From NCBI GenBank assembly GCA_046756385.1, contig JBHHWG010000002.1, positions 2,275 through 66,274 of the forward strand: a stretch of DNA of 64,000 nt. Direction: 5' to 3'. The stretch comes from Sphingomonadales bacterium (GTDB taxonomy: Bacteria > Pseudomonadota > Alphaproteobacteria > CAZZKF01). Within the stretch, counting starts at the first letter, position 1. Every line of letters starts with the position of its first letter. Below are positions 3,921 to 28,505 of the stretch, one piece after another. Position numbers and translations under genes: made by a program. The notes under the pieces are model-generated. The model did no database searches, had not been told where the DNA came from, and saw only the letters and a program-made list of their open reading frames with translations.

Positions 3921-4231
3921 TGGCTGATAACACCTTGATATCGGGCGCGCTGGCCGCCGTTGACAACCGGACGATCGAGGCCCCACAGGCCACCGCCAAT
4001 CAGAAAAAAGCAAGCGAGACAGCGGAAACCTTCGAGGCCGTCTTCCTGGCGCAAATGCTCAATCAGATGTTCGAAAGCGTCAAGACCGACGGGCCGTTTG
4101 GCGGTGGATTCAGCGAAGGCATCTTCCGCTCGATGTTGAACGACCAATATGCGGAAACGCTTTCCAGTCGTGGCGGCATCGGCATTGCCGACGCGGTCTA
4201 TCGCGAAATCCTGAAAACGCAGGAGGTGTAG
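3917..4231 (+). CDS. flgJ: Rod-binding protein FlgJ (short form without muramidase domain)
   Basis: FEAVFLAQML..MF....TDGPFGGG..E..FRSML...YA.....GGIGIA; follows flgI. Confidence 0.88.
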   Translation: MMADNTLISGALAAVDNRTIEAPQATANQKKASETAETFEAVFLAQMLNQMFESVKTDGPFGGGFSEGIFRSMLNDQYAETLSSRGGIGIADAVYREILKTQEV

Positions 4232-4233: not shown

Positions 4234-4671
4234 ATGTCCGAAAATCCTGCCCCATTAGCCAGGGTTCTAACCCTTACCGAGCGACTGACCGCCCTGATCA
4301 CTCAGGAAAGCGCTCTCCTGCACGAGCGCCGCGCCCGCGAGATAACTGACTTTCATGCCGAAAAAATTCGGCTTTCAGAGCTTTATGCCAGGGAAATGGA
4401 AACCCTGAGACGCAATAGCTCCTTGATCAAAACCGCCCCGCCCGCCGAGATGGCCAGGTTCAAGCAGTTAACCGCCTTGTTTCGCGAGGCGCTGGCGGAG
4501 AACAAAAGGATTGTCCAAGCCCTCAAATCCGTCACCGAAGGCATGATCCGCTCAATCGCCGATGAAGTCACCAGGCGAAACAATCCGGTTAACGGTTACG
4601 GGGGCGATGCGGTCTTGAAACGCCAGGGCGCCCCTGCCCCGACCTCGATCGCGCTAAATCAGGTCATTTGA
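4234..4671 (+). CDS. FlgN-like flagellar export chaperone / flagellar basal-body protein
   Basis: 145-aa helical protein directly after flgJ; L..LI..E...L pattern and C-terminal GY motif typical of alphaproteobacterial FlgN-like proteins. Confidence 0.55.
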   Translation: MSENPAPLARVLTLTERLTALITQESALLHERRAREITDFHAEKIRLSELYAREMETLRRNSSLIKTAPPAEMARFKQLTALFREALAENKRIVQALKSVTEGMIRSIADEVTRRNNPVNGYGGDAVLKRQGAPAPTSIALNQVI

Positions 4672-4777
4672 GCTTGTGCCCAGAGAATTGGGTTCAGACC
4701 CTGACCAAAAGCCTTATGATCATTTCGATGCAGCTCATGCAACCAGAATGCGAGATTGTGGGAATTCGGACACCATA

Positions 4778-6079
4778 ATGGCTGACAAGCTTGCGATATC
4801 GGGCGGGACGCCGGTCCGCCGCCGCCCCTTTCCTCCCCGCCAGACCATCGGCGACGAGGAAAAGAAAGCGGTTCTCGAGGTTATGGACTCGGGCAATCTG
4901 TCGGCCTTTTTCGGCAGTCCCGGCCCGGAATTCATGGGCGGCGAGAAAATTCGCGCCTTCGAGAGCGCCTGGGCCCGAAAATTCGGCTACCGCCATGCCG
5001 TTACGGTCAATAGCTGGACGTCGGGTCTGGTGGCGGCGGTGGGCGCGGTGGGGATTGAGCCCGGCGACGAGGTGATTTGCACGCCCTACACCATGTCCGC
5101 CTCGGCGACCGCGATCCTGATGTGGGGTGGCATTCCGGTATTCGCGGATATCGACCCCGACAGCTTTTGCCTCGATCCCAAAGCCGTTGACGCGGCGATC
5201 ACGCCCCGGACCAAGGCAATCATGGTGGTTCATCTTTTCGGCTGCCCGGCCGATATGGATGAGATCATGGCGATAGCCCGGCGGCACGGGCTTCGTGTCA
5301 TCGAGGATGCGGCACAAGCCCCCGGGGCGACATACAAGGGCAAACCGGTCGGGGCGCTGGCCGACATTGGCGGCTTCAGCCTCAATTACCACAAGCATAT
5401 TCACACCGGCGAGGGCGGCGTAGTCGTATGCAATGACGATACCCTGGCGCGACGGTGCCAGATGATCCGCAATCACGGCGAAAACGTGGTGGAGGATTGG
5501 GGCGTCGACGACATCGGCAATATGATCGGGGCCAATTACCGGCTCACCGAATTGCAGGCCGCAATCGGGATTGAGCAACTCAAAAGACTCGACGGGCTGC
5601 TTGAATGGCGCCAGAAGCTCGCCCGGCGCCTTGACGGGAAGCTGAAGGATCTGCCGGGGATCAAGGTGCCGCGCCTGCCATCCGACCGGACCCATTCCTA
5701 CTACTGCTATCCAATCCGCTATGACCAGGATGTCACGGGTGTCAGCCGGGAGCATTTCATCGAGGCAGTGAATGCCGAACTGCCTGAGATGGTTACGAGT
5801 GACGACATGCCGCTGGGCGGCGGCTATGTCGAGCCGTTATATCTGAGCCCGCTTTATCAACGCCGGATCGCGTTCGGCAAGCGCCACTTCCCTTTCAGCC
5901 TGGTCGAAAACGGCCCGGATTACGCCAAGGGCCTGTGTCCGGTCACCGAACGCATGTTCGAGCGGGAACTGATGCTGTCAAGCATCGTTCGCGAACCGCT
6001 GACCACCGACGACATGGACGACTTCGCGGCCGCGATCGAGAAAGTGCTCGGCAACCTTGATGAATTGAGAGACCGCTGA
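4778..6079 (+). CDS. DegT/DnrJ/EryC1/StrS family PLP-dependent sugar aminotransferase
   Basis: LAI.GG.PVR; VIEDAAQAPGA; FSLNYHKHIHTGEGG (PLP lysine); NYRLTELQAAIG; start moved to in-frame ATG 4778. Confidence 0.92.
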   Translation: MADKLAISGGTPVRRRPFPPRQTIGDEEKKAVLEVMDSGNLSAFFGSPGPEFMGGEKIRAFESAWARKFGYRHAVTVNSWTSGLVAAVGAVGIEPGDEVICTPYTMSASATAILMWGGIPVFADIDPDSFCLDPKAVDAAITPRTKAIMVVHLFGCPADMDEIMAIARRHGLRVIEDAAQAPGATYKGKPVGALADIGGFSLNYHKHIHTGEGGVVVCNDDTLARRCQMIRNHGENVVEDWGVDDIGNMIGANYRLTELQAAIGIEQLKRLDGLLEWRQKLARRLDGKLKDLPGIKVPRLPSDRTHSYYCYPIRYDQDVTGVSREHFIEAVNAELPEMVTSDDMPLGGGYVEPLYLSPLYQRRIAFGKRHFPFSLVENGPDYAKGLCPVTERMFERELMLSSIVREPLTTDDMDDFAAAIEKVLGNLDELRDR

Positions 6080-7155
6080 TGACCGCGGGCGTCATCGTGT
6101 CGCGGCAGGCGGGCACGGCGGCGGCGTTTCACCCGTTGCTGAGGCTCCTCCGCGACGCCCGACCCGATCTCGATCTTTCGGTTTTCTGCTACCCGGATTC
6201 AAGGGATTTTCTGCCGTCGGGCTCGATCATCGAACGATTCGGGGATGCCCGCGAGACTCTGGACCAGCTTACCGATGTCGCGTTCGTGTTGACCGGCACC
6301 TCCGAGGAGGTGGCCGGCGATGCCCTGTGGTGGTCCTGGTCCCGGCAGCGCGGCGTGCGGTCCGTCGCCTTTGTCGACCAGTGGGTAAATTACTGGCAGC
6401 GCTTCACCTCCGACCCCGCCAGAGGCGACAGGTTCAACCACCTGCCCGATTGCGTGGCAGTGGTCGACGGCCTTGCGAAACGACGCCTGGAGGAATCCGG
6501 CCTCGCTTCCGGTATCATTGTCGAGACCGGTACGCCAGTACTCGACGACCTGTTTACCGCTCCCGGAAACGCGGGTGAACGGACACGAGCGCGCTACTTG
6601 AAAGACCACCGGGACATTTTGCTGCTTTACGCCTGCGAGGGTATTTGGCCGGATGATCGCACGGACCTGGAATTTCTCGATGCCGCGACGCTGGAGCGGT
6701 CACTTGCACTGTGCTGCGAAGCGGCAGGCTGGCACGCGGAGCGCGGGGACGGCAACCTTACGCTGCTGTTGAAACCCCATCCCAGGCAGATCCTTTCCGG
6801 CGCCTTGCCGGGAGCGCCCCGGTCGAGCGCCGATGGGCTGTCGATCCATATATGCGACCATGGGCGCGTCGAGATGCTGCACGCCGCCGATATCGTGCTG
6901 GGGGCGCACTCCATGCCCCTTTATGAAGCTTCAATGCTGGGAAAACCGGCGATCAGCATCCAGCCGGACAAGAAACATGTCCGCGACCTCACTGACGGCC
7001 GGGCCGGGATTGACGTCGTGACCGATATTGAGCAACTGAAACAAGCGCTGGGCCAGGCTCTGGACCTTGTCGCCCAAAGCGCTTCCCGACCGCGACCCGC
7101 GCCGGGTGAACCCAGCCATGCCAGGCGCTTTCTGTCGGCGCTGGATCTTTTGTAG
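6079..7155 (+). CDS. Putative GT-B fold protein; candidate nonulosonic-acid/CMP-sugar transferase
   Basis: VDQWVNY, TGTP.LD, LLLKPHPR and HSMPLYEASMLGKPAISI motifs resemble GT-B HP-motif enzymes; overlaps the upstream stop codon. Confidence 0.5.
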   Translation: MTAGVIVSRQAGTAAAFHPLLRLLRDARPDLDLSVFCYPDSRDFLPSGSIIERFGDARETLDQLTDVAFVLTGTSEEVAGDALWWSWSRQRGVRSVAFVDQWVNYWQRFTSDPARGDRFNHLPDCVAVVDGLAKRRLEESGLASGIIVETGTPVLDDLFTAPGNAGERTRARYLKDHRDILLLYACEGIWPDDRTDLEFLDAATLERSLALCCEAAGWHAERGDGNLTLLLKPHPRQILSGALPGAPRSSADGLSIHICDHGRVEMLHAADIVLGAHSMPLYEASMLGKPAISIQPDKKHVRDLTDGRAGIDVVTDIEQLKQALGQALDLVAQSASRPRPAPGEPSHARRFLSALDLL

Positions 7156-7169
7156 CGGGACTGGAAACT

Positions 7170-7937
7170 ATGAAAACCATTGGTGTGATCCAGGCAAGAC
7201 TCGGCTCCTCCCGCCTGCCCCGCAAGGTTCTGGCCGGCATCGCCGGCAAACCGATGCTTCTGCAAATCGTCGAGCGGTTGCGCGCCTGCCGGCGCCTTGA
7301 CGAAGTGGTGATTTCAACCTCGTCCTGCGACAGCGACGACGAACTTGTCTATTTCGCCAAACGCAATCAAATTCGTTGTTTCCGCGGCCCGGTCGACGAT
7401 ATCGCCGTGCGCCTGTATGAGGCCGCCAGGGGCGCCGGCGCTGATGTGTTCGCACGGGTTTGGGGCGACTGCCCGCTCATCGCGCCGGGTGTGATCGATC
7501 AGGTGGTGGACACGTTACACGACGGCCAGTTCGATTACGCCACCAACGTGATGCGCGGCCAGCTATCGTTCCCCGACGGTCAGGACGTCGAAGTCTATCG
7601 AACCGCGACCATCGCCGCCCTGATCCATGACGTCACCGACCCCAAACTGCGGGAATTCCCACAGGAATGGCTGGTCGCAAATCAACAGTTATTCAAACTC
7701 GGAAGCGTCAGCCGGGACGATGACCTTTCGGACTGGCATATCAGTGTCGATTATCCGGAGGATCTGGAGGCCATGCGGACAATATATGCAGCGCTCGCGG
7801 ATCGCGGCCTCGACAATGAACTGGACACGCTGGTTCGCCTGCTGCGCGAGGAGCCCGGCTTGTTGCAGGCGTTTTCGGGCGCGCCCCGAAATATCGAATA
7901 TCAGGCCTACTTGAAGGAAATGGCTACTCGCCGATAA
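7170..7937 (+). CDS. SpsF-type cytidylyltransferase (CMP-sugar synthetase) #1
   Basis: IQARLGSSRLPRKVL; RVWGDCPLI; SVDYPEDL. Confidence 0.9.
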   Translation: MKTIGVIQARLGSSRLPRKVLAGIAGKPMLLQIVERLRACRRLDEVVISTSSCDSDDELVYFAKRNQIRCFRGPVDDIAVRLYEAARGAGADVFARVWGDCPLIAPGVIDQVVDTLHDGQFDYATNVMRGQLSFPDGQDVEVYRTATIAALIHDVTDPKLREFPQEWLVANQQLFKLGSVSRDDDLSDWHISVDYPEDLEAMRTIYAALADRGLDNELDTLVRLLREEPGLLQAFSGAPRNIEYQAYLKEMATRR

Positions 7938-7973
7938 TGGGCGAGCAGGATTTACGGCAGTGAACAGGACAGT

Positions 7974-8579
7974 TTGGATATGACAGAACCGTTCATGGAC
8001 GGCACGAGCTTTTTCCTCCGCCCGGTGTGTCGCGACGATTATACCGACCACTATCTGGGCTGGATCAACGATCAGACCGTTACCCGTTTTCTCTCCCGCG
8101 GCATCTATCCCGTGACGCTTGAGGACCAGGTTGAGGATTTCGAAGCCTTACGCAACAGCACCGACGACGTCGAATTCTGTATCGTCGAGAAAGAGGATAA
8201 CAGGCCGGTCGGGCTCGTGGGGCTGCATGGCTTCCAGTGGGTCTATCGTTCGGCGGAATTCCGGATTCTGATCGGCGACCGCCGGTTCTGGGGCAAGGGC
8301 ATCGGCACCGAGGCGGCGCAACTGCTGTGCGCCTACGGCTTTGAGACCCTCAATCTCAACAAGGTATGGCTGGGCGTCAGCGCCGGAAACAAGGGCGCGG
8401 TTCGGTCCTATGAGAAGGCCGGCTTTACCCAGGAAGGCGCCCTGCGTCAGGAGATTTACCGCAACGGGCGCTATTACGATGTGGTGCGCATGAGCCTGCT
8501 GCGCTCGGAATATGAAGTGGTGTCGAAAACATGGCCAATTCACGATCTGATCGACCGGCAATTCCGCGCTTCGGACTGA
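7974..8579 (+). CDS. GNAT (RimJ/RimL-type) N-acetyltransferase
   Basis: WGKGIGTEA acetyl-CoA motif; N..AVRSYEKAGF..EG.LR. Confidence 0.88.
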   Translation: MDMTEPFMDGTSFFLRPVCRDDYTDHYLGWINDQTVTRFLSRGIYPVTLEDQVEDFEALRNSTDDVEFCIVEKEDNRPVGLVGLHGFQWVYRSAEFRILIGDRRFWGKGIGTEAAQLLCAYGFETLNLNKVWLGVSAGNKGAVRSYEKAGFTQEGALRQEIYRNGRYYDVVRMSLLRSEYEVVSKTWPIHDLIDRQFRASD

Positions 8580-9577
8580 TCGGCTGCGGCCGGATCGGCT
8601 CGCTTTACGACGAGGGAGCCCCGGACGGCCCGGCGCTTTCGGTGGCTGGCGCGCTCACCCGTTCGCCATGGGCCGAACTGGCGGCGGTGTGCGACGCGGA
8701 CCCGGCCCGGGCACGGACCTGTGCCGAAATAAGGGGCGTGGCCGCGTGTTTTTCCAACTACAGGGAGATGCTGGCCACTGAAAATCTCGACGCCATCGCC
8801 ATTTGCACGCCCCCCTCGCATCGGCCCGACATCGTTGAGGCGGCGCTGGAGAACGGCGTGCGCCTGATCTGGTGCGAGAAACCGGTGGCCGCGTCGCTCG
8901 ACGAGGCTCGCGCCATCGAGCGCCTGATCGCGGACAGGAACATCGTATTCGCCGTCAATTATCTTCGGCGCTGGGCACCGGTGACCGCACGCCTCGCGTC
9001 GCTTATCCAAACCGGCGAACTCGGCCCCGCCCAATCGGCGACGCTTACCTACTGCAAGGGCATCGCCAACAACGGTTCCCACTTCATCGACCTGATGACG
9101 CACTTCTTCGGCGTGCCACGCACCGCGACAGCATTGCGGCAATTGAATGATGGCCGGGAAGCCAGCGATCCCACCCTCGACGCCGTGATCACTTTTCAGG
9201 GATCGGCGGGCGCATTTCCTTTCCGCCTGATCGCCTTGGACCATCGCAATTTCACGGTTTGCGAGCTCGATATCGTGCTCGCCAAGGGCCGGATAAAACT
9301 GCTCGACGGGGGCGATGTCGTCGAGATCTTCCGCACCGCGCCCGACCCCGTGGTTCCGGGCTACACAACGCTGAGCCTTGCCGAGCGGCACGCCCACGCC
9401 CTTGATGATACGCTGGAGCGCACGGTCGAGCAGGTCGTGCGGGTCTATCACGGTGAAGAGAACGCGCCTTTGTGCGGCATCACCGACGGCATCAGCGCGC
9501 TCCATGCCGTCGACTGTTTACTCAGGTCATGGGACCTGCACGGCGCCCCAGTGAGCACATCCCCCATCAGCGGGTGA
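8531..9577 (+). CDS. Gfo/Idh/MocA family NAD(P)-dependent oxidoreductase
   Basis: GLIGCGRIG Rossmann motif; CEKPVA; VNYLRRW; NNGSHFID. Confidence 0.9.
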   Translation: MANSRSDRPAIPRFGLIGCGRIGSLYDEGAPDGPALSVAGALTRSPWAELAAVCDADPARARTCAEIRGVAACFSNYREMLATENLDAIAICTPPSHRPDIVEAALENGVRLIWCEKPVAASLDEARAIERLIADRNIVFAVNYLRRWAPVTARLASLIQTGELGPAQSATLTYCKGIANNGSHFIDLMTHFFGVPRTATALRQLNDGREASDPTLDAVITFQGSAGAFPFRLIALDHRNFTVCELDIVLAKGRIKLLDGGDVVEIFRTAPDPVVPGYTTLSLAERHAHALDDTLERTVEQVVRVYHGEENAPLCGITDGISALHAVDCLLRSWDLHGAPVSTSPISG

Positions 9578-9586
9578 TACCGCCGT

Positions 9587-10144
9587 TCATGCCGGGGCCA
9601 GCAATCCCTTTCCGCGCAAACGTTCCTCGATGCCGGGCTTAACGCTTTGCCACTCGGAGGCCAGCATGCTCAACGTCACGACATCAAGCCACTCTTCCCC
9701 TTTACATATGTGCTGGCGGAATATTCCTTCCTGGTGGAATCCGAACCGCTTGTGCATTTCCACCACCGCCGGATTATTGGCAAGCACCTCACAGCACAGC
9801 CTGTTCAGCCCAAGCTCCTCGAACACGTAGCGCAGGATGAAAAACTCGACGAATGAGCCAACGCCCTTGCCGCGCAAGTCGGATTTCGCGATGTAAAACG
9901 CCCAGTAACATCGACGATGGTCTTCATTGATACCGTAGACATTGGCCAAGCCCACATCTTCATCGTCACAGACGATGATCCAGTACTTCCTGGCCGGATC
10001 GGCCATCGCGTTTTCAAACCATCCCTCGTGTTCCCCTGGCGAGATAAAATGGTCCGAATACATATACCGGCCGACACTTGGCTGGTTTCGCCACGACCGA
10101 ACCATGTCCCGATCGCCGCTCGTTACGTCGCGTAGTTCAATCAT
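9587..10144 (-). CDS. pseH: UDP-4-amino-4,6-dideoxy-N-acetyl-beta-L-altrosamine N-acetyltransferase PseH
   Basis: WRN.P.V..YMYSDH.IS..EH..WF; CYWAFY; RGKGVGS; LCCEVL..N..V..MH..FGF; located in the pse cluster. Confidence 0.85.
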   Translation of the reverse strand: MIELRDVTSGDRDMVRSWRNQPSVGRYMYSDHFISPGEHEGWFENAMADPARKYWIIVCDDEDVGLANVYGINEDHRRCYWAFYIAKSDLRGKGVGSFVEFFILRYVFEELGLNRLCCEVLANNPAVVEMHKRFGFHQEGIFRQHICKGEEWLDVVTLSMLASEWQSVKPGIEERLRGKGLLAPA

Positions 10145-10278
10145 AGCTCAACTATTCCATTAAGAATTTGCAATGTACCACATACCTTGCGGCCAGCATG
10201 GTGCAAATCAGGCGTAGGGTGTCAACCCACGACCTAAAAACTATCGTAAAAACCATCGGTTGTGAACTTGGCACGGCA

Positions 10279-11760
10279 CTATTTCCTGGTTTCCCAGCAG
10301 GTCATCTCTCCCTTCTCGCTCACCAGCCGCAGGCCTGCCGCCTCGGCGATCCTTCGGGATGCGATATTGTCGGATTTTATTTCCGCCCGAATGACCCCGT
10401 CCAGGTCGCCCACCACCTGCCTGACCATGTGTGTGCCGATCCGCCGCCCCCGGGCCTCGGGCGCTACGGTCCAGGACAGCACCCAGCCTCCGGGCGCGCG
10501 GTCGGCCCGGGCGGTTCCCACCGGCCGGCCGTCCTGTTCGGCGGTAAAAAGAACGCGGTCCGGGTTGTTGAGCGTTTTTTTGAGCCATTCCAGGTGGCTG
10601 TCCCAAACCAGCGGGCCGCTATCTTTCGAGCTTTCCCGCGTCGCCGGATCGTTGCGCCAGTTAAAGAACAGCCGGGCGTCCTCGAGGCGCGCCGGACGCA
10701 GTGACAGATCCCCCGCCGCCCGCGCGCCGGTGACCGCCCGGTAAACCCGCTCGCGGCCCTTGCCGTCGATTGCCGCCATGCCGCTTTGCGCAAAAGAGCG
10801 CCGCGCCCCAGGGTCCCCGCACAGATTTCCGAGAGCACCAAGGATTGCGTTGAACGGCACGGCGGTGCGGGCGTCGAAAATTCGGCCACAGCCCTGACGC
10901 TCGAACCAGACGGCCGAGCCGTGCTGGTTATCGGCGACGACCAGCGCCAGGGAGGGCAGGCCCATATAAGCCGCCTCCCACATCGTCGTCCCCGCGCTGA
11001 TGATCCCGCTATCGGCCCAGGCCATGAGCGCGGCCATGTCCCTGGCATCCTCGCGGACCTCGATTTTCGCACCCCCGGCGCCGGTCAGCGCCCGGATCGC
11101 CTCGCGTCGGGGTGTTGCGCCGCCAATAACGGCGACAATCTCGAGCGCGTCGGCCGCCGCCGCAATGCTTCCGAGCAGCCTTTCCGTGATGGCGAGGGGG
11201 TCGGCCCCGCCGAGCGTGACGAGCACCCTTCGGGCGTGATCGGCTATTGCGCGGCTCGGTGGCCGGGCATCGCGAAACTCGTCGCGCAACAGCACATAAT
11301 CCGCGCCCAGCAACAGCGTGGCGTCCGGCGCCCGGCCCTGGTACATGGCCGGTTGGGCATTCAGGTTCTGATTGAGGATATAGTCGGCGTGATAGCAGGC
11401 CAGGGTGGCTTCATCGTCGATAATCAGGGTTTTGAGGTGCAAGTCCTTTACCGTCCTCTGGAACCGGCTGTCGAACCGATAGCCATCGATGACCACAAGA
11501 TCGCAACAAAGCCCGGCGGCGAGACCGGCGGTTTGTCTGGCGTCCGACTCGCTTCCCCGCAACGCGGCAATCGCTTGGCAATCGATGCCTTCGGCGGCCA
11601 GGCGATCTTCGAAACCCGGCACAAGTTGCTGGCATGCGAAGGTCACGCACGCGCCGTGTTGACGGAATTCCTGAGCCAGCGCCAGGCAGCGCATGAGGTG
11701 ACCCGCGCCTATTTCGCGGCCACCGTCCGCCCGGAACAGAACATGTGTCAGTTGTGACAT
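10279..11760 (-). CDS. pseG: PseG UDP-sugar hydrolase fused to a C-terminal GNAT domain
   Basis: FRADGG.EIGAGHLMRCLALA; DGY.F; TLGGADP; SAGTT.WE...G.P....VADNQ; C-terminal WRNDP.TR...H..W and RGRRIG GNAT motifs. Confidence 0.88.
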   Translation of the reverse strand: MSQLTHVLFRADGGREIGAGHLMRCLALAQEFRQHGACVTFACQQLVPGFEDRLAAEGIDCQAIAALRGSESDARQTAGLAAGLCCDLVVIDGYRFDSRFQRTVKDLHLKTLIIDDEATLACYHADYILNQNLNAQPAMYQGRAPDATLLLGADYVLLRDEFRDARPPSRAIADHARRVLVTLGGADPLAITERLLGSIAAAADALEIVAVIGGATPRREAIRALTGAGGAKIEVREDARDMAALMAWADSGIISAGTTMWEAAYMGLPSLALVVADNQHGSAVWFERQGCGRIFDARTAVPFNAILGALGNLCGDPGARRSFAQSGMAAIDGKGRERVYRAVTGARAAGDLSLRPARLEDARLFFNWRNDPATRESSKDSGPLVWDSHLEWLKKTLNNPDRVLFTAEQDGRPVGTARADRAPGGWVLSWTVAPEARGRRIGTHMVRQVVGDLDGVIRAEIKSDNIASRRIAEAAGLRLVSEKGEMTCWETRK

Positions 11761-11804
11761 GTCACCTCAGCAAAACAATTGACTAAGCTCGCGGCAAGCT
11801 GTCT

Positions 11805-11839
11805 GGTTAACGTTTCGCTATCTTGACTGTCTGTTTACC
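11805..11839. promoter_or_regulatory. Two imperfect CtrA-like boxes in the divergent pseG/pseC promoter region
   Basis: Minus strand ATAG-N7-TTAACC (11805-11821); plus strand TTGA-N7-TTTACC (11823-11839). Confidence 0.4.
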
Positions 11840-11904
11840 ATTTTACGAGGATAAATGGCTTGGATAGAAGCGTTACTGAGCCTGATACCCGCGGATATTA
11901 TTCC

Positions 11905-13113
11905 ATGACCCAGCCTTTTCTGCCCTACGGACGCCAAGTCATTGACGATGACGACATTGCCGCGGTGACCGCGGTACTGAAAGGCGACTGGCTGACTACC
12001 GGGCCGGCCGTCGCGGCGTTCGAGCAGGCGCTCGCGAACCGCGTCGGGGCCAGATACGCCGTGGCCTGTTCAAGCGGCACCGCGGCATTGCATCTGGCCG
12101 CGCTGGCCCTGGGTCTGGGGCCTGGCGACGCCATGGTTGTTCCCGCCATCACATTTCTCGCCACCGCCAATGCGGCGCGCTATGTCGGCGCCGACGTCGT
12201 GTTCGCCGACGTCGATCCCGATACGGGACTGATGACCCCCGAAACCCTTAACGCCGCACTAAAGCGCGCGGCCGGGCGCAATGTCCGCGCGATCGCGCCT
12301 GTGCATTTCGCCGGGCAATGCGAGGATCTGGCTGCATTTCGCAAAATCGCCGACGACCACGGCTTGGATATTGTAGAGGATGCCTGTCACGCGCTGGGTG
12401 CTGTGTATCAAACCGCTAACCGCGCACCGGCCCCGGTCGGCGGCTGTCAGTTCGGCAATATGGCGGTGTTTTCGTTCCATCCCGTCAAGACCGTGGCCAT
12501 GGGCGAAGGCGGCGCGGTCACCACCAACGATGACAGCTTGTTTGAACGGCTGACGACCCTTCGCAACCACGGCATGATCCGGAATCCGGAACGACTCGCC
12601 CACCGCGCCGATGCCTTCGATGACTCCGGCAAGCTGAACCCCTGGTATTACGAAATGACGGAGCCGGGCTTTAACTACCGCGCCTCGGACATTCATTGCG
12701 CGCTGGGGCTGAGCCAGATCGCCAGGCTCGACCATTTCATCGCATGCCGCCGCGAGCTCACCGGCCGCTATGACGAGCGGCTAGAGAGTTTGGCGCCCAG
12801 CGTGCGGCCATTGGCGCGGACCGCCGGCTGTCGGCCCGGCTGGCACCTTTATGTGGCGCTGATTGATTTCACCACGCTGGGCCTGGACCGCGCCGAGGTC
12901 ATGATAAAGTTGCGCGACAAGGGTATTGGCACCCAGGTCCATTATTATCCGGTCAACCGACAGCCCTATTACCGGGAACTATATGGCGACGCCGCTTTGC
13001 CTGGCGCCGATGCATACTACAATCGGGCCTTGTCATTGCCGCTGTTCGCGGGCATGGACATTGCCGATGTCGACCGCGTGGTCGATACATTTGGGCAGGT
13101 GCTGGGGTTATGA
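11905..13113 (+). CDS. pseC: UDP-4-amino-4,6-dideoxy-N-acetyl-beta-L-altrosamine transaminase PseC
   Basis: LPYGRQ.IDDDDI.AV..VL..DWLTTGP; EDACHALG; FSFHPVK; WYYEM..PGFNYR; GTQVHY. Confidence 0.93.
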
Positions 13114-14171
13114 CCGGAATCAAACATGAAATATCGATCGACGGCCGGGCGATCGGCCCCGATCATCGGCCCTATGTAATTGCCGAGATGTCCGGCAATC
13201 ATAACGGCGATATTAAGCGCGCCATGCGCCTGATTGAAGGCGCGAAGGAAGCCGGCGCCGATGCGGTCAAGATGCAGACCTATACTCCCGATACCATTAC
13301 CATTGATCACGATGGGCCGGGTTTTACCATCAAGGGCGGCCTGTGGGACGGTCGGACGCTCTATGACCTCTATCGCGAGGCCCACACGCCCTGGGACTGG
13401 CACGAGCCGCTTTTCGCCAAGGCCCGGGAGTTGGGTATCACAATTTTTTCCACCCCCTTCGATGACACCGCGGTTGACCTGCTGGAGGAATTAGGCAGCC
13501 CGGCGTACAAGATCGCTTCATTGGAGATTGTCGATCTGCCGCTCATCGAGCGCGTCGCGGCCACCGGAAAACCGATGATCATGTCCACCGGCACCGCCAC
13601 CCAGGACGAAATCGCCGAAGCGGTAGCGGCGGTACGAGGCGCGGGCTGCACCGATCTCGTCCTGCTACACTGCGTAAGCGGCTATCCGACGCCGCCTCAG
13701 GAGATCAACCTGCGAACGCTTGTCGATCTGGGGGACCGGTTCGACGCAATCGCCGGGCTGTCGGACCACACCCTGGGAACCTCGGTGTCGGTGGCGGCGG
13801 TGGCGCTTGGGGCGGCGATTGTCGAAAAACATGTGACCCTGCGCCGCGCCGACGGGGGGCCGGACGCCGCTTTCTCGCTGGAAATGGACGAGCTGGCGCA
13901 ACTCGCCGGCGACTGCCGGACAGCCTGGAGCGCGCTGGGCCAGGTCGATTACTCGACTAAGCCCAGCGAGGCCGGCAACAAGCTCTTTCGCCGCTCGCTT
14001 TATGTGGTCGCCGATATCGACGAGGGCGAGATTTTTACACGAGACAATGTTCGTTCCATCCGGCCCGGCCATGGTATCGCGCCGAAGCATATGGCTCAAA
14101 TACTGGGCCGCCGCGCCGCCAGGGCCATTGACAGGGGCACGCCGCTTTCCTGGAACCACATCCGCGACTAG
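13110..14171 (+). CDS. pseI: Pseudaminic acid synthase PseI (NeuB family)
   Basis: [10 protein letters not shown]; QTYTPDTIT; [20 protein letters not shown] (Pse-type); GLSDHTLG; EKH; C-terminal SAF domain RSIRPG.G. Confidence 0.95.
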
Positions 14172-14252
14172 CAGAGTTAGTGAAATTCTTTTTGACTTCA
14201 AGAAGTTGCCGCGCCATTCAATATTGACCCGGCAACCTTGTAACACTGAGTT

Positions 14253-14269
14253 TTCATCAGTTATTAACC
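14253..14269 (+). promoter_or_regulatory. CtrA-like box upstream of pseB
   Basis: TTCA-N7-TTAACC. Confidence 0.5.
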
Positions 14270-14345
14270 ACTAGCGGCCCATAAAGATCATGAATTATTC
14301 CGCTTTGGTTATACTCCGGTTCGCCGGTGCCTGGATGATCGCATA

Positions 14346-15422
14346 ATGGACAAAATGGCGAACGAGGAAATGCAGGAAACAGCCGGCCATCAATTTCTTT
14401 CGCCCGATGTCGACAAAATCATGGATGGCAAGGCGCTATTAGTAACTGGCGGCACGGGCTCGTTCGGCAAGAGCTTCATCCGAACGTTGCTGCGCCGATA
14501 CAACCTGCGCCGGCTGGTGATTTTTTCGCGCGACGAACTCAAACAATATGAAATGCAGTCGGACCCTGATTTCCGGAATCAGGATTGCCTGCGGTTTTTT
14601 ATCGGTGACGTGCGCGACCGGGCGCGTCTGGAAATGGCGTTTCGCGGCATCGATTATGTCGTTCACGCCGCCGCTATGAAGCATGTCCCGGCGGCCGAAT
14701 ATAACCCGTTCGAATGCATCCGCACCAATGTTCTTGGCGCCGAAAACGTGGTGTACGCCGCCATACATCAGGGCGTGAAAAAGGTATTGGCGCTGTCGAC
14801 CGACAAGGCCGCCAGCCCGATCAACCTTTATGGCGCCAGCAAACTTGCTTCGGACAAGATATTCACCGCCGCCAACAATTTGCGGGGCGAAGGCGGCACG
14901 GAGTTTTCCGTGGTCCGTTATGGCAACGTGGTCGGGAGCCGAGGCAGCGTCGTGCCTTTCTTCCGCAAGCTGGCCGCGGACGGCGTGGATAGTTTGCCGA
15001 TCACCGACGAGCGGATGACCCGGTTCTGGATTACCCTTCCCCAGGCGGTAAATTTCGTGCTGTCCACGATGGCGACCATGCGCGGCGGCGAGCTGTTCGT
15101 GCCAAAGATCCCGAGCATGCGCATTCTCGAACTTGCCGAAGCGATTGCCCCCGGTCACAAGACCCACGTCATCGGCATTCGGCCCGGCGAAAAGCTGCAC
15201 GAGGTTATGGTTCCCGTTGACGACGCCCGCTCGACGCTGGAGCTTGAGGATCGCTATATCATCAAGCCAAGCTACGAGGGCTGGAAATGCGGCGCCTATG
15301 ACGGTGCAACCCCACAACCGGCGCCGGAGGATTTCTACTACTCGAGCGACAATAATGACGACTGGCTGTCGGTTGACCGCATGCGGGAGCTACTGGCGTC
15401 TTCCCCGGTGGCAAGGATCTGA
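14346..15422 (+). CDS. pseB: UDP-N-acetylglucosamine 4,6-dehydratase (inverting) PseB/FlmA
   Basis: TGGTGSFG; SRDELKQ; HAAAMKHVPAAEYNPFECI; STDKA..P.NLYGASKL; VRYGNVVGSRGSVVP; MTRFWI; GIRPGEKLHE; exact start uncertain. Confidence 0.96.
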   Translation: MDKMANEEMQETAGHQFLSPDVDKIMDGKALLVTGGTGSFGKSFIRTLLRRYNLRRLVIFSRDELKQYEMQSDPDFRNQDCLRFFIGDVRDRARLEMAFRGIDYVVHAAAMKHVPAAEYNPFECIRTNVLGAENVVYAAIHQGVKKVLALSTDKAASPINLYGASKLASDKIFTAANNLRGEGGTEFSVVRYGNVVGSRGSVVPFFRKLAADGVDSLPITDERMTRFWITLPQAVNFVLSTMATMRGGELFVPKIPSMRILELAEAIAPGHKTHVIGIRPGEKLHEVMVPVDDARSTLELEDRYIIKPSYEGWKCGAYDGATPQPAPEDFYYSSDNNDDWLSVDRMRELLASSPVARI

Positions 15423-15455
15423 GCCAGTCGGCCCAAAGTCAGAGGCCGGCATAAC

Positions 15456-16385
15456 GTGAGGCAAGCGCCAAAATTAGGTTTGGGAACCGTCCAGTTCGGT
15501 ATGGACTATGGCGTGTCCAATCAACATGGACAATGCCCGCCTGAAGAGGTTGAACGCATTCTGGGCCATGCCGCCAAAGGCAATTTTGTGGTGCTCGACA
15601 CCGCTGCCGCATATGGCGCAAGTGAAGCGACACTGGGCAAATGCCTGCCGCCGGACCATGCCTTCCGGGTCGTCACGAAGGCGCCCCCTCTAAAGTGCCC
15701 TGAGGCCACACAATCCGCCGTCGAAATGCTGTTTGAGAACTTCGAGCGGTCGTTGGAGCGCCTCGGCCAGAAGTCGGTCCACGGCTTGCTGGTCCACCGT
15801 GGCAACGACCTCATGGGCCCCGGCGGGCAGGCTGTGTGGCAAGGGATGGAGCGGCTTCGCGACATGGGCCGCGTGACCAGGATCGGTGCATCAGCCTATT
15901 GCGCGGAGGAGATCGAGACGCTGATCGACTGCTACCCGCTGGAGATCATCCAAACCCCTTTCAACGCGTTCGACCAGAGCCTCGGCGAGTCCGGGTGTCT
16001 GCAACGGCTCAAGAATAGCGGGGTCGAAATTCACGTTCGCTCGGCGTTTTTGCAAGGCGTGCTGCTGATGGCGCCTGATGACCTGCCGGATCATCTGGCC
16101 CCTGCCCATCCGGCGCTTGAGGCATGGCGCAATGAATTGGCGAAACATGGCCTGTCGCCCCTCGAAGGCGCGCTCGCCTTCGTCCGTCAATGGCCGGCGA
16201 TTGACGTCATGGTGCTGGGTGTTACCCGCACCGCCGAGTTGTTGGAAATTGAACGCGCGGCGTCAGTGCCGATCCCCAAGGCGATCGACTGGTCCCAATT
16301 CGCGGTTCGTGACCCGGCGATCATCGACCCGCGTAGCTGGCCCACGGTCCGGCAGGATGCACAACAGGGGGATCACGCCGCGTGA
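15456..16385 (+). CDS. Aldo/keto reductase family oxidoreductase
   Basis: LGLGTVQFGMDYG; LDTAAAYG.SE; IHVRSAFLQG.L; IDPRSW. Confidence 0.9.
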   Translation: MRQAPKLGLGTVQFGMDYGVSNQHGQCPPEEVERILGHAAKGNFVVLDTAAAYGASEATLGKCLPPDHAFRVVTKAPPLKCPEATQSAVEMLFENFERSLERLGQKSVHGLLVHRGNDLMGPGGQAVWQGMERLRDMGRVTRIGASAYCAEEIETLIDCYPLEIIQTPFNAFDQSLGESGCLQRLKNSGVEIHVRSAFLQGVLLMAPDDLPDHLAPAHPALEAWRNELAKHGLSPLEGALAFVRQWPAIDVMVLGVTRTAELLEIERAASVPIPKAIDWSQFAVRDPAIIDPRSWPTVRQDAQQGDHAA

Positions 16386-17167
16386 TTATGGGTATCCTTC
16401 AGGCGCGGTGCTCATCAAGCCGCCTTCCGGGCAAGGTGCTCAAGCCAATCCTTGGCGAAGCCATGTTGGCGCGCCAGATAGAGCGGCTGGGCCGGGCCAA
16501 ACGGATCGAACGACTGGTCGTGGCGACCAGCACCGACGCTTCGGACAACACCCTTGAGGAATTATGCAGCACAATCGGCGTCCCCTGCTATCGCGGCGCG
16601 CTCGACGATGTTCTGGATCGCTTTTACGAGGCCGCGGCGTGTTACATGCCGGCCCATGTGATCCGGCTGACCGGCGATTGCCCGCTGTGCGATCCGGAAC
16701 TCATTGACCATCTGACCGCACGGCACCTTGAAGGCGGCTTCGATTATTCGAGTAACGCGCTCGAACCCACATTTCCGGACGGCCTCGACGCTGAAATCAT
16801 GACGTTCGATGCTTTGCGGCGGGCCTGGCGCGAGGCCGAACTACCATCCGACCGCGAGCATGTCACGCCATTCATCCACCAACGGCCCCAGCGGTTTCGG
16901 CTGTTCAATCTGACCAACGAGCGCGACCTGGCCCATCTGCGCTGGACCGTGGACGAGCCGGAGGATTTTGAAATGGTGAGCCGCGTTTACGAGGCGCTCT
17001 ATCCGGAGAACCCCGGCTTTGACACGGCTGAAATATTGGCGTTCCTCGATCGTCATCCCGAAATAGCGGCGCTAAACGCCGCTCGCGTCCGCAACGAAGG
17101 GCTGGACAAGTCGCGACAACAGGATCAAATCTTCCTGGCGGCCAAAGAAAAAGGGAGACCGGCGTGA
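16382..17167 (+). CDS. SpsF-type cytidylyltransferase #2 (candidate PseF/FlmC function)
   Basis: ILQARCSSSRLPGKVL; DDVLDRF; RLTGDCPL.DP; FPDGLD.E; REHVTPFI; RWTVDEPED. Confidence 0.9.
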   Translation: MIMGILQARCSSSRLPGKVLKPILGEAMLARQIERLGRAKRIERLVVATSTDASDNTLEELCSTIGVPCYRGALDDVLDRFYEAAACYMPAHVIRLTGDCPLCDPELIDHLTARHLEGGFDYSSNALEPTFPDGLDAEIMTFDALRRAWREAELPSDREHVTPFIHQRPQRFRLFNLTNERDLAHLRWTVDEPEDFEMVSRVYEALYPENPGFDTAEILAFLDRHPEIAALNAARVRNEGLDKSRQQDQIFLAAKEKGRPA

Positions 17168-18453
17168 GCAAGCGTTATTCCAAATCCGAAGCCCTTCAAA
17201 CCCGGGCCGAGCAGACCATTCCGCTCGGCGCCCAGACTTTTTCCAAGAGCAAAACCCAGTTGCCGTTCGGGGTCTCACCCTATTTCGCGACACGCGCCCG
17301 GGGCAGTCGCCTGTGGGACGTGGACGGCAACGAATATATCGACTTCATCAATGGCCTGTGCGCGGTGACGCTGGGCTATAGCGACCCGGATGTGACCGAA
17401 GCCGTCCGGTGTCAGCTCGAATCCGGGGTGATTTTTTCCCTGCCGCACGAACTTGAAATCCAGGTCGCCGAAAGAATCGTCGACATGGTGCCGTGCGCGA
17501 AAAAAGTGCGGTTTGGAAAAAACGGCTCCGACGCCACTGCTGGAGCGGTTCGGGTCGCCCGTGCTTTTACCGGCCGTGACCGCATTGCTGTTTGCGGCTA
17601 TCACGGCTGGCAGGACTGGTATATCGGCGCAACCACCCGGAATTTGGGCGTGCCCGAGGCCACACGGGCGCTTACCCACAGTTTCCCTTATGACAACCTC
17701 GGTGCACTTGAGACCTTGCTGGCGAGCCACCGCAATGAGTTCGCGGCCGTCATGCTTGAGCCGATGAACATCAGGGAACCCGGTGACGGTTATCTCCATG
17801 GCGTGATCGAGATGGCGCATCGGCATGGCGCGTTGGCGATCTTCGACGAAACGATCACCGGATTTCGCCTCGCCGCCGGGGGCGCACAGGAATATTTCGG
17901 CGCGATACCGGACCTGGCGACGTTCGGAAAAGGGCTCGCCAACGGCTATCCCCTGTCGGCCGTCGCCGGCCGCGCCGACGTGATGCGGCTGATGGAGGAG
18001 GTGTTCTTCTCCTTCACCATGGGTGGCGAGGCGCTGTCGTTGGCCGCGGCCCAGGCAGCGCTTGACAAAATTCATCGCGAGCCCGTGATCGACCGGCTTC
18101 ACAAAATGGGCAAGCTGTTGATGGAAGGCCTGAAACAATGCATCGAGGCGCATGGCAGCGGCGATTTCGCCGAAGTTTCGGGTCATCCGAGCTGGAGCTT
18201 CTTAAGCTTCCACGACGCGCCGGGCGCATCCCAAATCGAAATCAAAACACTCTTCCTTCAGGAAATGTTCGCCCGCGGCATCCTGACGCTGGGCACCCAC
18301 AATATGAGCTACGCCCACGACGAAACCGACGTCAAGGCCACCCTTGCCGTCTATGATGAAGTATTCCCGGTGCTAAGCCGCGCGGTCGCGGAAGGCGCTG
18401 TTCGCCAATATCTCGATTGCGAGCCCTTGACGCCGCTATTCAAAATCCGCTGA
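17164..18453 (+). CDS. Class III PLP aminotransferase (glutamate-1-semialdehyde aminomutase-like), glycan-cluster type
   Basis: QTFSKS; DVDGNEYID; KNGSDAT; CGYHGWQDW; FDE.ITGFR; PDLATFGKGLANGYP. Confidence 0.9.
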   Translation: MSKRYSKSEALQTRAEQTIPLGAQTFSKSKTQLPFGVSPYFATRARGSRLWDVDGNEYIDFINGLCAVTLGYSDPDVTEAVRCQLESGVIFSLPHELEIQVAERIVDMVPCAKKVRFGKNGSDATAGAVRVARAFTGRDRIAVCGYHGWQDWYIGATTRNLGVPEATRALTHSFPYDNLGALETLLASHRNEFAAVMLEPMNIREPGDGYLHGVIEMAHRHGALAIFDETITGFRLAAGGAQEYFGAIPDLATFGKGLANGYPLSAVAGRADVMRLMEEVFFSFTMGGEALSLAAAQAALDKIHREPVIDRLHKMGKLLMEGLKQCIEAHGSGDFAEVSGHPSWSFLSFHDAPGASQIEIKTLFLQEMFARGILTLGTHNMSYAHDETDVKATLAVYDEVFPVLSRAVAEGAVRQYLDCEPLTPLFKIR

Positions 18454-18610
18454 TTTAGTCACGCAACGCTGTGGTGACTAAATGCGGTGATGGGAAGTCC
18501 CCCGGTCCTGAGCCCAGATAATGGGCCAGATAATGGGAATATTGGCCCCGGGTGGGGAATAGCCGGGACCGCCCGTGCGGCCCCGGAACCCCGGAAAGTC
18601 CAAATCAGCC

Positions 18611-19441: not shown

Positions 19442-19511
19442 AGGTTTTCTCCTTGGACTTTCCGTTTCCAAACTCTGAGGCGCAGTCCTGTCTGCGCCAC
19501 GCCCAAGTAAC

Positions 19512-19528
19512 AGCAACAACCGTGCCAA
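19512..19528 (-). promoter_or_regulatory. sigma54 promoter of flagellin #1
   Basis: Minus strand TTGGCACGGTTGTTGCT. Confidence 0.88.
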
Positions 19529-22541: not shown

Positions 22542-22607
22542 GTGGTTTCTCCTTTCTGAGAAATGTTTGAGCCTTTTGCTCCCGGGCTTTTTGCCCAATC
22601 GCTGTTA

Positions 22608-25774: not shown

Positions 25775-25844
25775 GCTTGAATAACAGCGTGCCAGCCCTT
25801 AGTTATTGGCCCCATTGAACCCCACGGAAATGCGGCCTGACACC

Positions 25845-26690: not shown

Positions 26691-26738
26691 GCATCGAACA
26701 GCCTGGCTTAACGGCTCACAACGCGACAAGATAAGCCC

Positions 26739-28467: not shown

Positions 28468-28505
28468 CCAGGGACACCAAACAACAATAACAATCGTGTC
28501 CCTGG
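28468..28505 (+). promoter_or_regulatory. Leader hairpin with (AAN)n loop
   Basis: Perfect 10-bp stem CCAGGGACAC/GTGTCCCTGG enclosing CAAACAACAATAACAATC. Confidence 0.5.

Follow-up and report, generated by a model that had tools for sequence, protein, structure and literature searches.

A putative flagellin glycosylation island of a Sphingomonadales bacterium with a pseudaminic acid core and two conserved accessory modules

Gene content of the island

The window analysed here is a 64-kb stretch of contig JBHHWG010000002.1 from a Sphingomonadales bacterium (GenBank assembly GCA_046756385.1), and the subject is a 14-kb island of nonulosonic acid (NulO) genes within it. The list of open reading frames (ORFs) of the window and the Pfam and NCBIfam profile scans, which are the basis of the gene content given below, place this island between flgI/flgJ and three flagellin genes, as had been stated in an earlier note made from the DNA alone. 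The island contains the genes of the pseudaminic acid (Pse) enzymes PseB, PseC, PseH, PseG (fused to a GNAT domain) and PseI, together with nine further genes and that of a FlmG-like transferase composed of tetratricopeptide repeats (TPR) and a GT-B domain. Two groups of genes outside the core, here called module 1 and module 2, are the accessory parts of the island, and within each of them neighbouring genes abut or overlap; the GC content is uniform over the island. The number of enzymes reported before, namely two cytidylyltransferases, three pyridoxal 5'-phosphate (PLP) aminotransferases, two extra oxidoreductases and three GNAT domains, was recovered by the Pfam and NCBIfam scans. The overall reading of the locus, as a flagellin O-glycosylation island of a Caulobacter-like alphaproteobacterium that makes a modified Pse, has about an even chance of being right.

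Pseudaminic acid core and CMP activation

PseH (9587–10144) and the PseG-GNAT fusion (10279–11760) are encoded on the minus strand, and PseC (11860–13113), PseI (13110–14171) and PseB (14346–15422) on the plus strand. Each of the five scores above its NCBIfam equivalog cut-off, with 161.1 bits for PseH (TIGR03585, cut-off 93.1), 222.4 bits for residues 6–283 of the PseG fusion (TIGR03590, cut-off 153.55), whose GNAT domain occupies residues 352–478, 493.8 bits for PseC (TIGR03588, cut-off 423.5), 501.6 bits for PseI (TIGR03586, cut-off 340.25) and 505.3 bits for PseB (TIGR03589, cut-off 407.75). By these family thresholds the five proteins are shown to make up a complete predicted route to free pseudaminic acid. 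The second DegT protein (ORF 4676–6079), which is 34% identical to PseC, reaches 230.4 bits with the PseC model, below the cut-off of 423.5, and the other two GNAT domains reach 56.4 (module 1) and 26.9 bits with the PseH model, below 93.1. PseI is the only NeuB-family gene in the genome as searched in full with TIGR03586 and PF03102, which agrees with the previous description of one NeuB-type synthase and one pseB/C/G/H set; the assembly comprises 2.8 Mb in 156 contigs and is 97% complete, so that the absences reported here are absences within a draft.

The textbook Pse pathway consists of six enzymes. No canonical PseF was detected in the genome, where the model TIGR03584 (cut-off 205.7 bits) matches only the two cytidylyltransferases of the island, CTP1 in module 1 (25.3 bits) and CTP2 in module 2 (about 20–21 bits). 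These two enzymes are 35% identical in a pairwise alignment, have the CTP_transf_3 fold (PF02348) and visibly contain the N-terminal nucleotide-binding motif ARxxSxRLPxK, which is the motif consensus of SpsF/FlmC-type cytidylyltransferases; the label SpsF is that of the earlier note, the profile scans giving only PF02348. Since no PseF is encoded elsewhere in the genome, CTP1 or CTP2 must be the CMP-Pse synthetase. CTP2 is the likely substitute, because PseF above the cut-off is also lacking in all five other genomes with the gene layout PseB-PseC-AKR-CTP2-AT3-PseG-PseI, and it is very probable, in view of the missing PseF, the gene context and the Caulobacter precedent, that this SpsF/FlmC-type enzyme takes the place of PseF. 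Of the enzymes that had been called surplus, CTP2 is therefore most likely a required one, while AKR, AT3 and module 1 are extra to the Pse core.

This arrangement resembles that of Caulobacter crescentus, which has the same core families (FlmA/PseB, FlmB/PseC, FlmH/PseH, FlmD/PseG and NeuB/PseI), a cytidylyltransferase other than PseF (FlmC) in the place of PseF, a flagellin transferase with TPR and GT-B parts (FlmG), several flagellins of ~275–305 aa, and flaF, flbT and fliX-flgI nearby. CTP2 is likened to FlmC, and the TPR protein to FlmG, by published descriptions, gene context and domain or fold. In the passages concerned, FlmC is described as cytidylyltransferase-like and without homology to PseF (PMC7591256), and spsF of Bacillus subtilis as required for the transfer of legionaminic acid (Leg) but not for its synthesis (PMC7439481). 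The Caulobacter genes differ in lying at several loci, as judged by locus tag, and six enzymes are described as sufficient there (PMC7591256), whereas the present genes form one island with nine more genes, counted as AKR, AT3, the five of module 1, unk145 and the PseG-fused GNAT.

Module 2

Module 2 lies downstream of pseB on the plus strand and consists of AKR, an aldo/keto reductase (15456–16385; PF00248, E 1.7e-26; KidO model 187 bits, below 244), CTP2 (16382–17167; PF02348, E 6e-33; PseF model 20 bits, below 205.7) and AT3, a class-III PLP enzyme similar to glutamate-1-semialdehyde (GSA) aminomutases (17164–18453; PF00202, E 5e-49). CTP2 starts 4–6 nt from the AKR stop, and its own stop overlaps the GTG start of AT3, which indicates translational coupling and upholds the earlier view of tightly coupled modules. 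As aligned with 1pz1, AKR has the catalytic D-Y-K-H positions, and a PDB search with it gave no match at 1e-10 and only distant aldo/keto reductases at 1e-3. AT3 retains the PLP lysine, within FGK, and its best PDB matches are GSA aminomutases (about 195 bits). AT3 was rejected as HemL, as it scores 252 bits with TIGR00713 (cut-off 527) and 406.5 bits with PRK06209 (cut-off 486) and stands in a NulO operon context in 68 of 80 loci.

The species-genome collection contains at least 596 relatives of AT3, and the window proteins were mapped by tblastn onto the best 80 of these loci (E ≤ 1e-8 and query coverage of 50% or more, with the best query kept at each place). The labels follow the best window query, and 'PseI' in another locus denotes a NeuB-family gene of 27–63% identity. 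A CTP2-type gene is present in 69 of the 80 loci and lies directly upstream of AT3 on the same strand in 57, while a NeuB-family gene is found in 68, PseC in 51, PseB in 47, PseG in 45 and AKR in 43; PseB, PseC, a NeuB-family gene, CTP2 and AKR occur all together in 27, and a flagellin gene is nearby in 3. The usual gene order is PseB-PseC-AKR-CTP2-AT3-PseG-PseI, and the hosts belong to Pseudomonadota, Acidobacteriota, Actinomycetota, Chloroflexota, Bacteroidota and Bacillota, with two archaeal metagenome-assembled genomes. Module 2 is among the commonest pse-type operon layouts across phyla, and it is mostly non-flagellar. The two 'extra cassettes' of the earlier note are both genuine conserved modules that travel with NulO genes, but module 2 is not an unusual one, given the number and phylum range of the AT3 relatives. 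Two further candidates were discarded. AT3 does not replace PseC, which accompanies it in the 51 loci mentioned (45 of 63 when only loci with 5 kb or more on each side are counted), and the open frames of 550–1154 aa among the CTP2 relatives are not fusions, as they contain only the cytidylyltransferase domain and unmatched sequence (one with a terminal GNAT) and are stop-to-stop frames of high-GC DNA.

Genes for AKR, an SpsF-like cytidylyltransferase and a 'glutamate-1-semialdehyde aminomutase' have been annotated before in pse-type clusters without NeuA/PseF. The same gene set is tabulated for the O-antigen cluster of Legionella pneumophila Sg6/Sg12, in a passage that makes no comment on function (PMC3694923), and the nab pse cluster of Vibrio sp. 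B9-25K2 encodes an SpsF-like domain fused to AKR (PMC7371886). As far as the passages concerned describe them, these clusters are known by annotation only and differ from the present island in serving lipopolysaccharide (LPS) or unknown glycans rather than flagellin, and the Vibrio version differs also in the AKR-cytidylyltransferase fusion and in a dehydrogenase that replaces AT3.

The Vibrio cluster gives rise to an alternative in which AKR, and perhaps Gfo of module 1, act as epimerising enzymes that yield a stereoisomer of Pse (for example the C4 or C8 epimer) with unchanged mass, and AT3 and DegT1 have other roles such as acyl-donor supply. The 1,2-diamino-4,5-methylenedioxybenzene (DMB) derivative of the sugar from Vibrio sp. 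B9-25K2 is reported with the mass of PseAc2 and a different tandem mass spectrometry (MS/MS) pattern, for which the authors considered a possible epimer or another substitution pattern (PMC7371886, in the passage on this strain). However, the cluster has a dehydrogenase, not AT3, after the fusion and so represents a different module, whereas here an intact aminotransferase and a spare GNAT go with each redox enzyme, the usual signature of a hydroxyl-to-acylamine conversion, and AT3 is directly coupled to CTP2 in the 57 loci noted above. Epimerisation with no gain of nitrogen is thus quite improbable as an account of the whole set. The Vibrio fusion cluster, which is without a class-III aminotransferase, gave the mass of di-N-acetyl-Pse, which speaks against an addition of nitrogen by AKR alone.

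Module 1

Module 1 comprises five genes on the plus strand upstream of the core, namely DegT1, a long-type DegT/DnrJ/EryC1 aminotransferase (4778–6079; PF01041, E 7e-94), unk358, a protein of 358 aa with a GT-B fold in its AlphaFold model and no Pfam match at 1e-3 (6079–7155), CTP1 (7170–7937; PF02348, E 3.5e-23), a GNAT N-acyltransferase (7974–8579; PF13302, E 2e-25) and Gfo, a Gfo/Idh/MocA oxidoreductase (8531–9577; PF01408, E 5e-21). The ORF of DegT1 is open from a GTG at 4676, and the in-frame ATG at 4778 (M35, 'MADKLAISGG'), where the gene had been placed before, is probably its true start. The lysine of DegT1 lies within YHKH. The best PDB matches of DegT1 are 8gyh (2e-70), 2-deoxy-scyllo-inosose aminotransferase (5e-63), perosamine synthases and KdnA (6e-56), followed by WbpE (2e-42), and it resembles aminotransferases whose substrates are not nucleotide-bound, such as 2-deoxy-scyllo-inosose aminotransferase and KdnA. 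Gfo best matches inositol and sugar dehydrogenases (inositol 2-dehydrogenase, 4e-14), and CTP1 best matches the uncharacterised cytidylyltransferase 6oew (9e-27) and then KdsB enzymes.

CTP1 was rejected as the cellular KdsB. No KdsB was found above the cut-off in the genome, where the best 'KdsB' matches are CTP1 and CTP2, and KdsA, WaaA and LpxC gave no match at E ≤ 0.001, so that 3-deoxy-D-manno-oct-2-ulosonic acid (Kdo) is apparently not made. The organism seems to be without lipid A/Kdo-type LPS, presumably in the manner of sphingolipid-bearing alphaproteobacteria. If CTP1 is a CMP-ulosonic-acid synthetase, its substrate must derive from the product of PseI, since PseI is the sole ulosonic-acid synthase and the Kdo pathway was not found.

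A metagenome scan with an alignment of unk358 relatives recovered 16 loci. In 13 of them unk358 is immediately preceded by a DegT1 orthologue (54–62% identity), and the other three begin at, or at most 0.5 kb from, unk358 and have no upstream sequence; Gfo is present in 11, the GNAT in 6 and CTP1 in 5. Four loci have a PseI-like gene (52–54% identity) immediately before DegT1, a fifth has one within the cluster, and the GNAT orthologues in module 1 loci are 45–58% identical. Two loci have the order PseB-PseC-CTP2-PseG...PseI-DegT1-unk358-[3 kb]-CTP1-GNAT-Gfo without AKR or AT3, and one has Gfo-DegT1-unk358 inside a legionaminic-type cluster (PtmE-like CBS-nucleotidyltransferase, dehydratase, DegT, CTP_transf_3 and GT52). 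Module 1 is a rarer conserved module that stands beside Pse- or Leg-type genes. The 96 cytidylyltransferase segments were placed in a quick maximum-likelihood tree, with support from the Shimodaira-Hasegawa-like approximate likelihood ratio test (SH-aLRT). All 19 module 1 cytidylyltransferases are found there within a single group of 21 (SH-aLRT 93), separate from the AT3-adjacent enzymes, and CTP1 belongs to a clade of seven rows composed of module 1 copies only (SH-aLRT 99), while CTP2 groups with the copy of the sister genus among the AT3-adjacent enzymes.

A side observation concerns the NeuB family. L099:39-1577, like the corresponding start of L111, encodes a NeuB-family synthase joined to a xylose-isomerase-like TIM-barrel (AP_endonuc_2) domain. 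The pse cluster downstream of it also encodes a PseG-formyltransferase fusion, another formyltransferase and a PIG-L deacetylase.

Co-occurrence in the class

Four features were sought in a single, evenly drawn set of 401 genomes from the class, the present one included, and the counts are descriptive, as the sample is small and related genomes are not independent. The unk358 family (E ≤ 1e-10) is present in 24 genomes (about 6%), AT3 (E ≤ 1e-80) in 27, PseI above the cut-off in 58 and the FlmG-like GT domain (E ≤ 1e-15) in 128. Among the 24 genomes with unk358, 10 have PseI, 8 have AT3 and 14 have the FlmG-like domain, and PseI accompanies AT3 in 12 of 27. The co-occurrence of both cassettes with pseI and flmG that had been put forward for checking is seen in part, as unk358, AT3 and PseI are found together in 5 of the 401 genomes and, with the FlmG-like domain, in 4.

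Of the 14 unk358-positive genomes without PseI above the cut-off, 13 hold another NeuB-family gene, the exception being 89% complete, so that at least 23 of the 24 have a NeuB-family gene; this gene lies within about 25 kb of unk358 in 15 of the 24 (coordinates read by eye). The loci from ten unk358-positive genomes show CTP-Gfo-DegT1-unk358-GNAT beside PseB/PseC, and one locus (G345) contains both modules and a weak FlmG-like match.

Identity of unk358 and the 2,3-diacetamido sugar alternative

Only 26 relatives of unk358 were found at E ≤ 1e-3 in a word-limited search of 5.8 billion proteins. Its AlphaFold model, built on a 24-sequence alignment with a predicted local distance difference test (pLDDT) score of 90.2, has a GT-B fold, whose top matches in both Foldseek and the Foldseek-independent VIA are UDP-GlcNAc 2-epimerases and NeuC (template modelling (TM) score ≤ 0.65; Z 22.0, 21.1 and 20.6), followed by ordinary GT-B glycosyltransferases (Z 20.1–18) and TarL/TagF (Z 17.8–16.8). 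The family profile best matches, weakly, a WbpI-type UDP-2,3-diacetamido-2,3-dideoxy-glucuronic acid 2-epimerase in the PDB (E 0.015), with the HP(R) and E motifs aligned, and the protein itself reaches neither the Epimerase_2 threshold (PF02350, 17.1 bits against 30.6) nor that of TIGR03568. Among the 24 family members, weak matches are to Epimerase_2 (22 members, best 9e-7), the BFO_1060 glycosyltransferase domain (12), DUF354 (10), TagF-like (8), the NeuC model (7) and polysialyltransferase (6), and the Atlas neighbours are likewise a mixture of Epimerase_2, Glyphos_transf, Capsule_synth and polyST. An HP motif is likewise characteristic of CMP/CDP-dependent GT-B transferases, and TagF, KpsC and polysialyltransferases have one. 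From its modelled fold unk358 may thus be either a 2-epimerase/NeuC-like protein (or hydrolase) or a CMP/CDP-dependent transferase. The two transferase-like genes pointed out earlier, at 6079–7155 and 24062–25774, both have GT-B folds in their models, with that at 6079–7155 epimerase-like or a transferase.

An epimerase would suit an alternative in which module 1 makes an unrelated 2,3-diacetamido sugar of the UDP-ManNAc3NAc(A) type by a Wbp-like route, where Gfo would oxidise C3 of UDP-GlcNAc(A), DegT1 aminate it, GNAT acetylate it and unk358 act as a 2-epimerase or hydrolase, with CTP1 having another role; a di- or oligosaccharide would result. All four enzyme families fit WbpB/WbpE/WbpD/WbpI (WlbA-D) at the family level, as a Gfo/Idh/MocA dehydrogenase, a DegT aminotransferase, an N-acetyltransferase and a 2-epimerase fold; WbpE- and WlbA-type chains are among the PDB matches of DegT1 and Gfo, an archaeal UDP-GlcNAc 3-dehydrogenase model matches Gfo at 2e-16, and the fold and profile matches of unk358 to 2-epimerases and NeuC given above point the same way. 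No member of the Wbp route is, however, the best match of its counterpart here. DegT1 is far nearer to aminotransferases of non-nucleotide substrates (2e-70 and 5e-63) than to WbpE (2e-42), Gfo is closest to inositol dehydrogenases, and the acetyltransferase of the Wbp route is a hexapeptide-repeat protein, whereas that of module 1 is a GNAT. Module 1 also travels with NeuB-family genes and nearly always has its own cytidylyltransferase of distinct lineage, which the Wbp pathway does not need, and a 3-acetamido hexose would, by established chemistry, be unable to give a pyranose NulO. The Wbp-like alternative is accordingly distinctly unlikely.

A different precedent is the Kdo8N pathway of Shewanella, in which the oxidoreductase KdnB and the aminotransferase KdnA act before CMP activation. 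As would be the case for module 1, a hydroxyl of a free ulosonic acid is oxidised, transaminated and then CMP-activated, and KdnA (PDB 5k8b) is among the matches of DegT1, though not the best one. The two differ in that the Kdo8N target is the primary C8 alcohol of Kdo, whereas Pse has only secondary hydroxyls and the Kdo pathway was not found here. KdnB belongs to an oxidoreductase family other than Gfo/Idh/MocA, and module 1 has a Gfo/Idh/MocA partner together with a GNAT, a dedicated cytidylyltransferase and a GT-B protein.

FlmG-like transferase, flagellins and flanking genes

Downstream of the modules, three flagellins with Flagellin_N and Flagellin_C domains (18611–19528, 19861–20688 and 21717–22598) are encoded on the minus strand with FlaG (21050–21496; PF03646, E 5e-12), FlaF (22908–23324; PF07309, E 1.4e-34) and FlbT (23293–23688; PF07378, E 1.2e-44), and are followed on the plus strand by a TPR protein of 570 aa (24062–25774). 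This FlmG-like protein matches TPR families at residues ~24–231, and its C-terminal 331 aa, modelled with AlphaFold 2 at a pLDDT of 93.5, have the GT9 protein 3tov as the top Foldseek match (8.8e-8), followed by WaaC, WaaF and TibC. The gene adjoins flbT, flaF and the three flagellins, an arrangement found also in the sister genus (G001), where the copy beside the flagellins is 62% identical. By analogy with FlmG in Caulobacter, this TPR/GT-B protein is likely to put the sugar on the three flagellins. The C-terminal domain has 1164 relatives, of which the 120 listed carry generic names, mostly 'TPR repeat protein', or none, with no 'FlmG' among the matches listed.

A second FlmG-like TPR and GT-B protein of 523 aa is encoded elsewhere in the genome (G000:C1:23233-24804, equivalent to L133:9234-10805, plus strand), with a C-terminal domain 43% identical to the first. 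It stands beside genes for a response regulator, an Hpt protein and pyruvate dehydrogenase, away from glycan genes, and the sister genus likewise has two FlmG-like copies.

The upstream side of the island contains flgA, flgH, dksA and fliX, followed on the plus strand by flgI, encoding the P-ring protein (2742–3920; PF02119, E 1.3e-139), and a flgJ-like gene for a rod-binding protein (3917–4231; PF10135, E 3e-17; NF009431, 90.8 bits, below the cut-off of 110). Between these and DegT1 lies unk145 (4234–4671, plus strand), whose product of 145 aa has no Pfam or NCBIfam match. By tblastn it is conserved at 46% identity after flgJ in the sister genus. In G357, whose unk358 relative is the closest one, a homologue of 36% identity immediately precedes the module 1 DegT gene. 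The gene may be a flagellar or an island-boundary gene.

Just 3' of the FlmG-like gene, an AAA ATPase (with a weak MadB-family match of 114 bits, below 475) and a VWA-domain protein are encoded on the plus strand (25806–27914). The region 28269–30239 has long overlapping ORFs on both strands (656 aa, minus; 532 aa, plus), and an ORF of 312 aa lies on the minus strand at 30292–31230, all without Pfam or NCBIfam matches.

Proposed route and the evidence weighed

The two modules have a somewhat better than even chance of being conserved tailoring modules of nonulosonic-acid clusters. Because both are conserved with NulO genes, and both recur with PseI in 5 of the 401 genomes, a Pse derivative is a reasonable inference, and an aminated or acylated Pse is plausible from the gene complement. 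In the proposed route, CTP2 would make CMP-Pse, which the FlmG-like protein would transfer to the flagellins. Module 1 would be a self-contained unit in which Gfo oxidises, DegT1 transaminates, GNAT N-acylates, CTP1 activates and unk358 hands on the sugar, so that one secondary hydroxyl of the core-made Pse (C4 or C8) would become an acetamido group; the new sugar activated by CTP1 would then be added by unk358 or by the FlmG-like protein. Module 1 is thought to act on Pse since PseI is the only ulosonic-acid synthase and the Kdo pathway was not found. This conversion by module 1, with flagellin carrying either a modified Pse or a pair of Pse and modified Pse, is put forward tentatively, as a possibility more doubtful than probable. 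The oxonium ion of acetamido-Pse would be expected at m/z 358.16 instead of 317.13 (calculated). AKR and AT3, whose role is the least certain, may carry out a second, analogous change from hydroxyl to amine, or a redox epimerisation.

A more elaborate form of the proposal, leading to a poly-amino nonulosonic acid, is unlikely. Here the two oxidise-transaminate pairs (Gfo/DegT1 and AKR/AT3) would aminate Pse at C4 and/or C8, the spare GNATs would acylate, each product would have its own SpsF-type CMP-synthetase, unk358 would add a second sugar to the one installed by FlmG, and the modules, which occur in hundreds of uncultured bacteria, would represent the biosynthetic genes for 8-amino nonulosonic acids, for example that of Tenacibaculum maritimum. 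An 8-amino nonulosonic acid occurs naturally in Flexibacter (Tenacibaculum) maritimus (PMC3210612), whose O-antigen contains an 8-amino-3,5,7,8,9-pentadeoxy-nonulosonic acid with a third amino group, which is the type of product expected of an oxidise-transaminate module acting on Pse or Leg; it is described there as a structure only, and the passage of the review gives no biosynthetic genes.

Several points weigh against a modified Pse on the flagellins. The chemical steps assigned beyond the Pse core rest on family membership and gene neighbourhood, and CTP2 is likened to FlmC/SpsF through the descriptions in papers and through gene context. The families of Gfo, DegT, acetyltransferase and 2-epimerase fit the logic of the UDP-ManNAc3NAcA pathway as well, and the epimerase matches of unk358 exceed those of generic glycosyltransferases by just 1–2 Z units. 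The NulO of the Vibrio with the SpsF-AKR fusion has the mass of di-N-acetyl-Pse, with no extra nitrogen and only its MS/MS pattern different (PMC7371886, same passage), and the description of Caulobacter involves no need for AKR, AT3 or module 1 (PMC7591256, in the passage concerned). Module 2 is mainly non-flagellar, and in the class sample AT3 occurs in 15 of its 27 genomes without PseI above the cut-off. In G357 module 1 follows the unk145 homologue 0.7 Mb from PseI, and the sister genus has neither module 1 nor PseI above the cut-off, yet has PseB-AKR-CTP2-AT3 by its flagellins. Hymenobacter-type loci have a cytidylyltransferase, AT3, a short-chain dehydrogenase/reductase (SDR) and a short NeuB without PseB or PseC.

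The Hymenobacter negativus example (L085, 7098–13160) contains a cytidylyltransferase, an unknown gene, AT3, an SDR and a short NeuB lacking the SAF domain. Such Bacteroidota loci suggest that AT3, a cytidylyltransferase, a reductase and a NeuB-type synthase form a self-contained pathway to another ulosonic acid. Because module 2 is mostly non-flagellar, is found in Hymenobacter without PseB/PseC and is often without PseI, its role may not be Pse-specific.

These points bear on a further alternative, in which the flagellins carry plain Pse5Ac7Ac and AKR, AT3 and module 1 are either dispensable or serve another glycoconjugate (capsule, S-layer or glycoprotein) that shares the CMP-sugar supply. 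It would agree with the six enzymes that are enough in Caulobacter (PMC7591256, as described there), with the position of module 2 mostly distant from flagellins, in O-antigen clusters and in Hymenobacter, with module 1 of G357 lying far from the Pse genes, and with the second FlmG-like transferase encoded elsewhere in the present genome. It would also agree with the stretch between unk145 and pseB, which is entirely different in the sister genus. There the slot between pseB and the unk145 homologue (L132, G001:C22:1-20000, about 11500–19100) contains genes for a GDP-mannose 4,6-dehydratase, a GT2, a C-methyltransferase, a second dehydratase/epimerase, a GNAT, a NeuB-type synthase (32% identical to PseI), an RmlD-like reductase and a methyltransferase. 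Because the gene content of G001 is so different, the unk145-pseB stretch appears to be a variable slot, which points to a swappable glycan cassette.

On the other hand, the accessory genes of the present island are intact, keep their catalytic residues, are translationally coupled to core genes and lie between flgJ and the flagellins. No Pfam polysaccharide exporter, polymerase or polyprenyl-phosphate transferase was found in the ORFs scanned from 4234 to 18453, and since the lipid A/Kdo genes were not found, an O-antigen role is unlikely. The genera of this family, moreover, both keep PseB-AKR-CTP2-AT3 beside the flagellins, the sister genus with its FlmG and three flagellins included. The plain Pse5Ac7Ac alternative is therefore regarded as improbable.

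Biological meaning

Flagellin glycosylation islands with tailoring genes are a familiar kind of locus, and incidental annotations of module 2 exist. No characterised member of module 1 or module 2 was found in the open-access papers searched. Pse on flagellins and surface glycans influences motility, filament assembly, and host and phage recognition. The comparisons made here indicate that many natural pse-type operons swap PseF for a cytidylyltransferase coupled to AKR and a class-III PLP enzyme, and that another module, of five genes including a cytidylyltransferase of its own, is repeatedly found next to Pse and Leg genes. The present genome is one instance among others, and it makes a clean test case, as it has one ulosonic-acid synthase, its Kdo/LPS genes were not found, and the parts are gathered in a 14-kb island beside the acceptors and the transferase. 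If the modules do add amino or acyl groups or alter stereochemistry, they would lead to new nonulosonic acids and new CMP-sugar synthetases, which would be of use in glyco-engineering and in reading glycan diversity from genomes.

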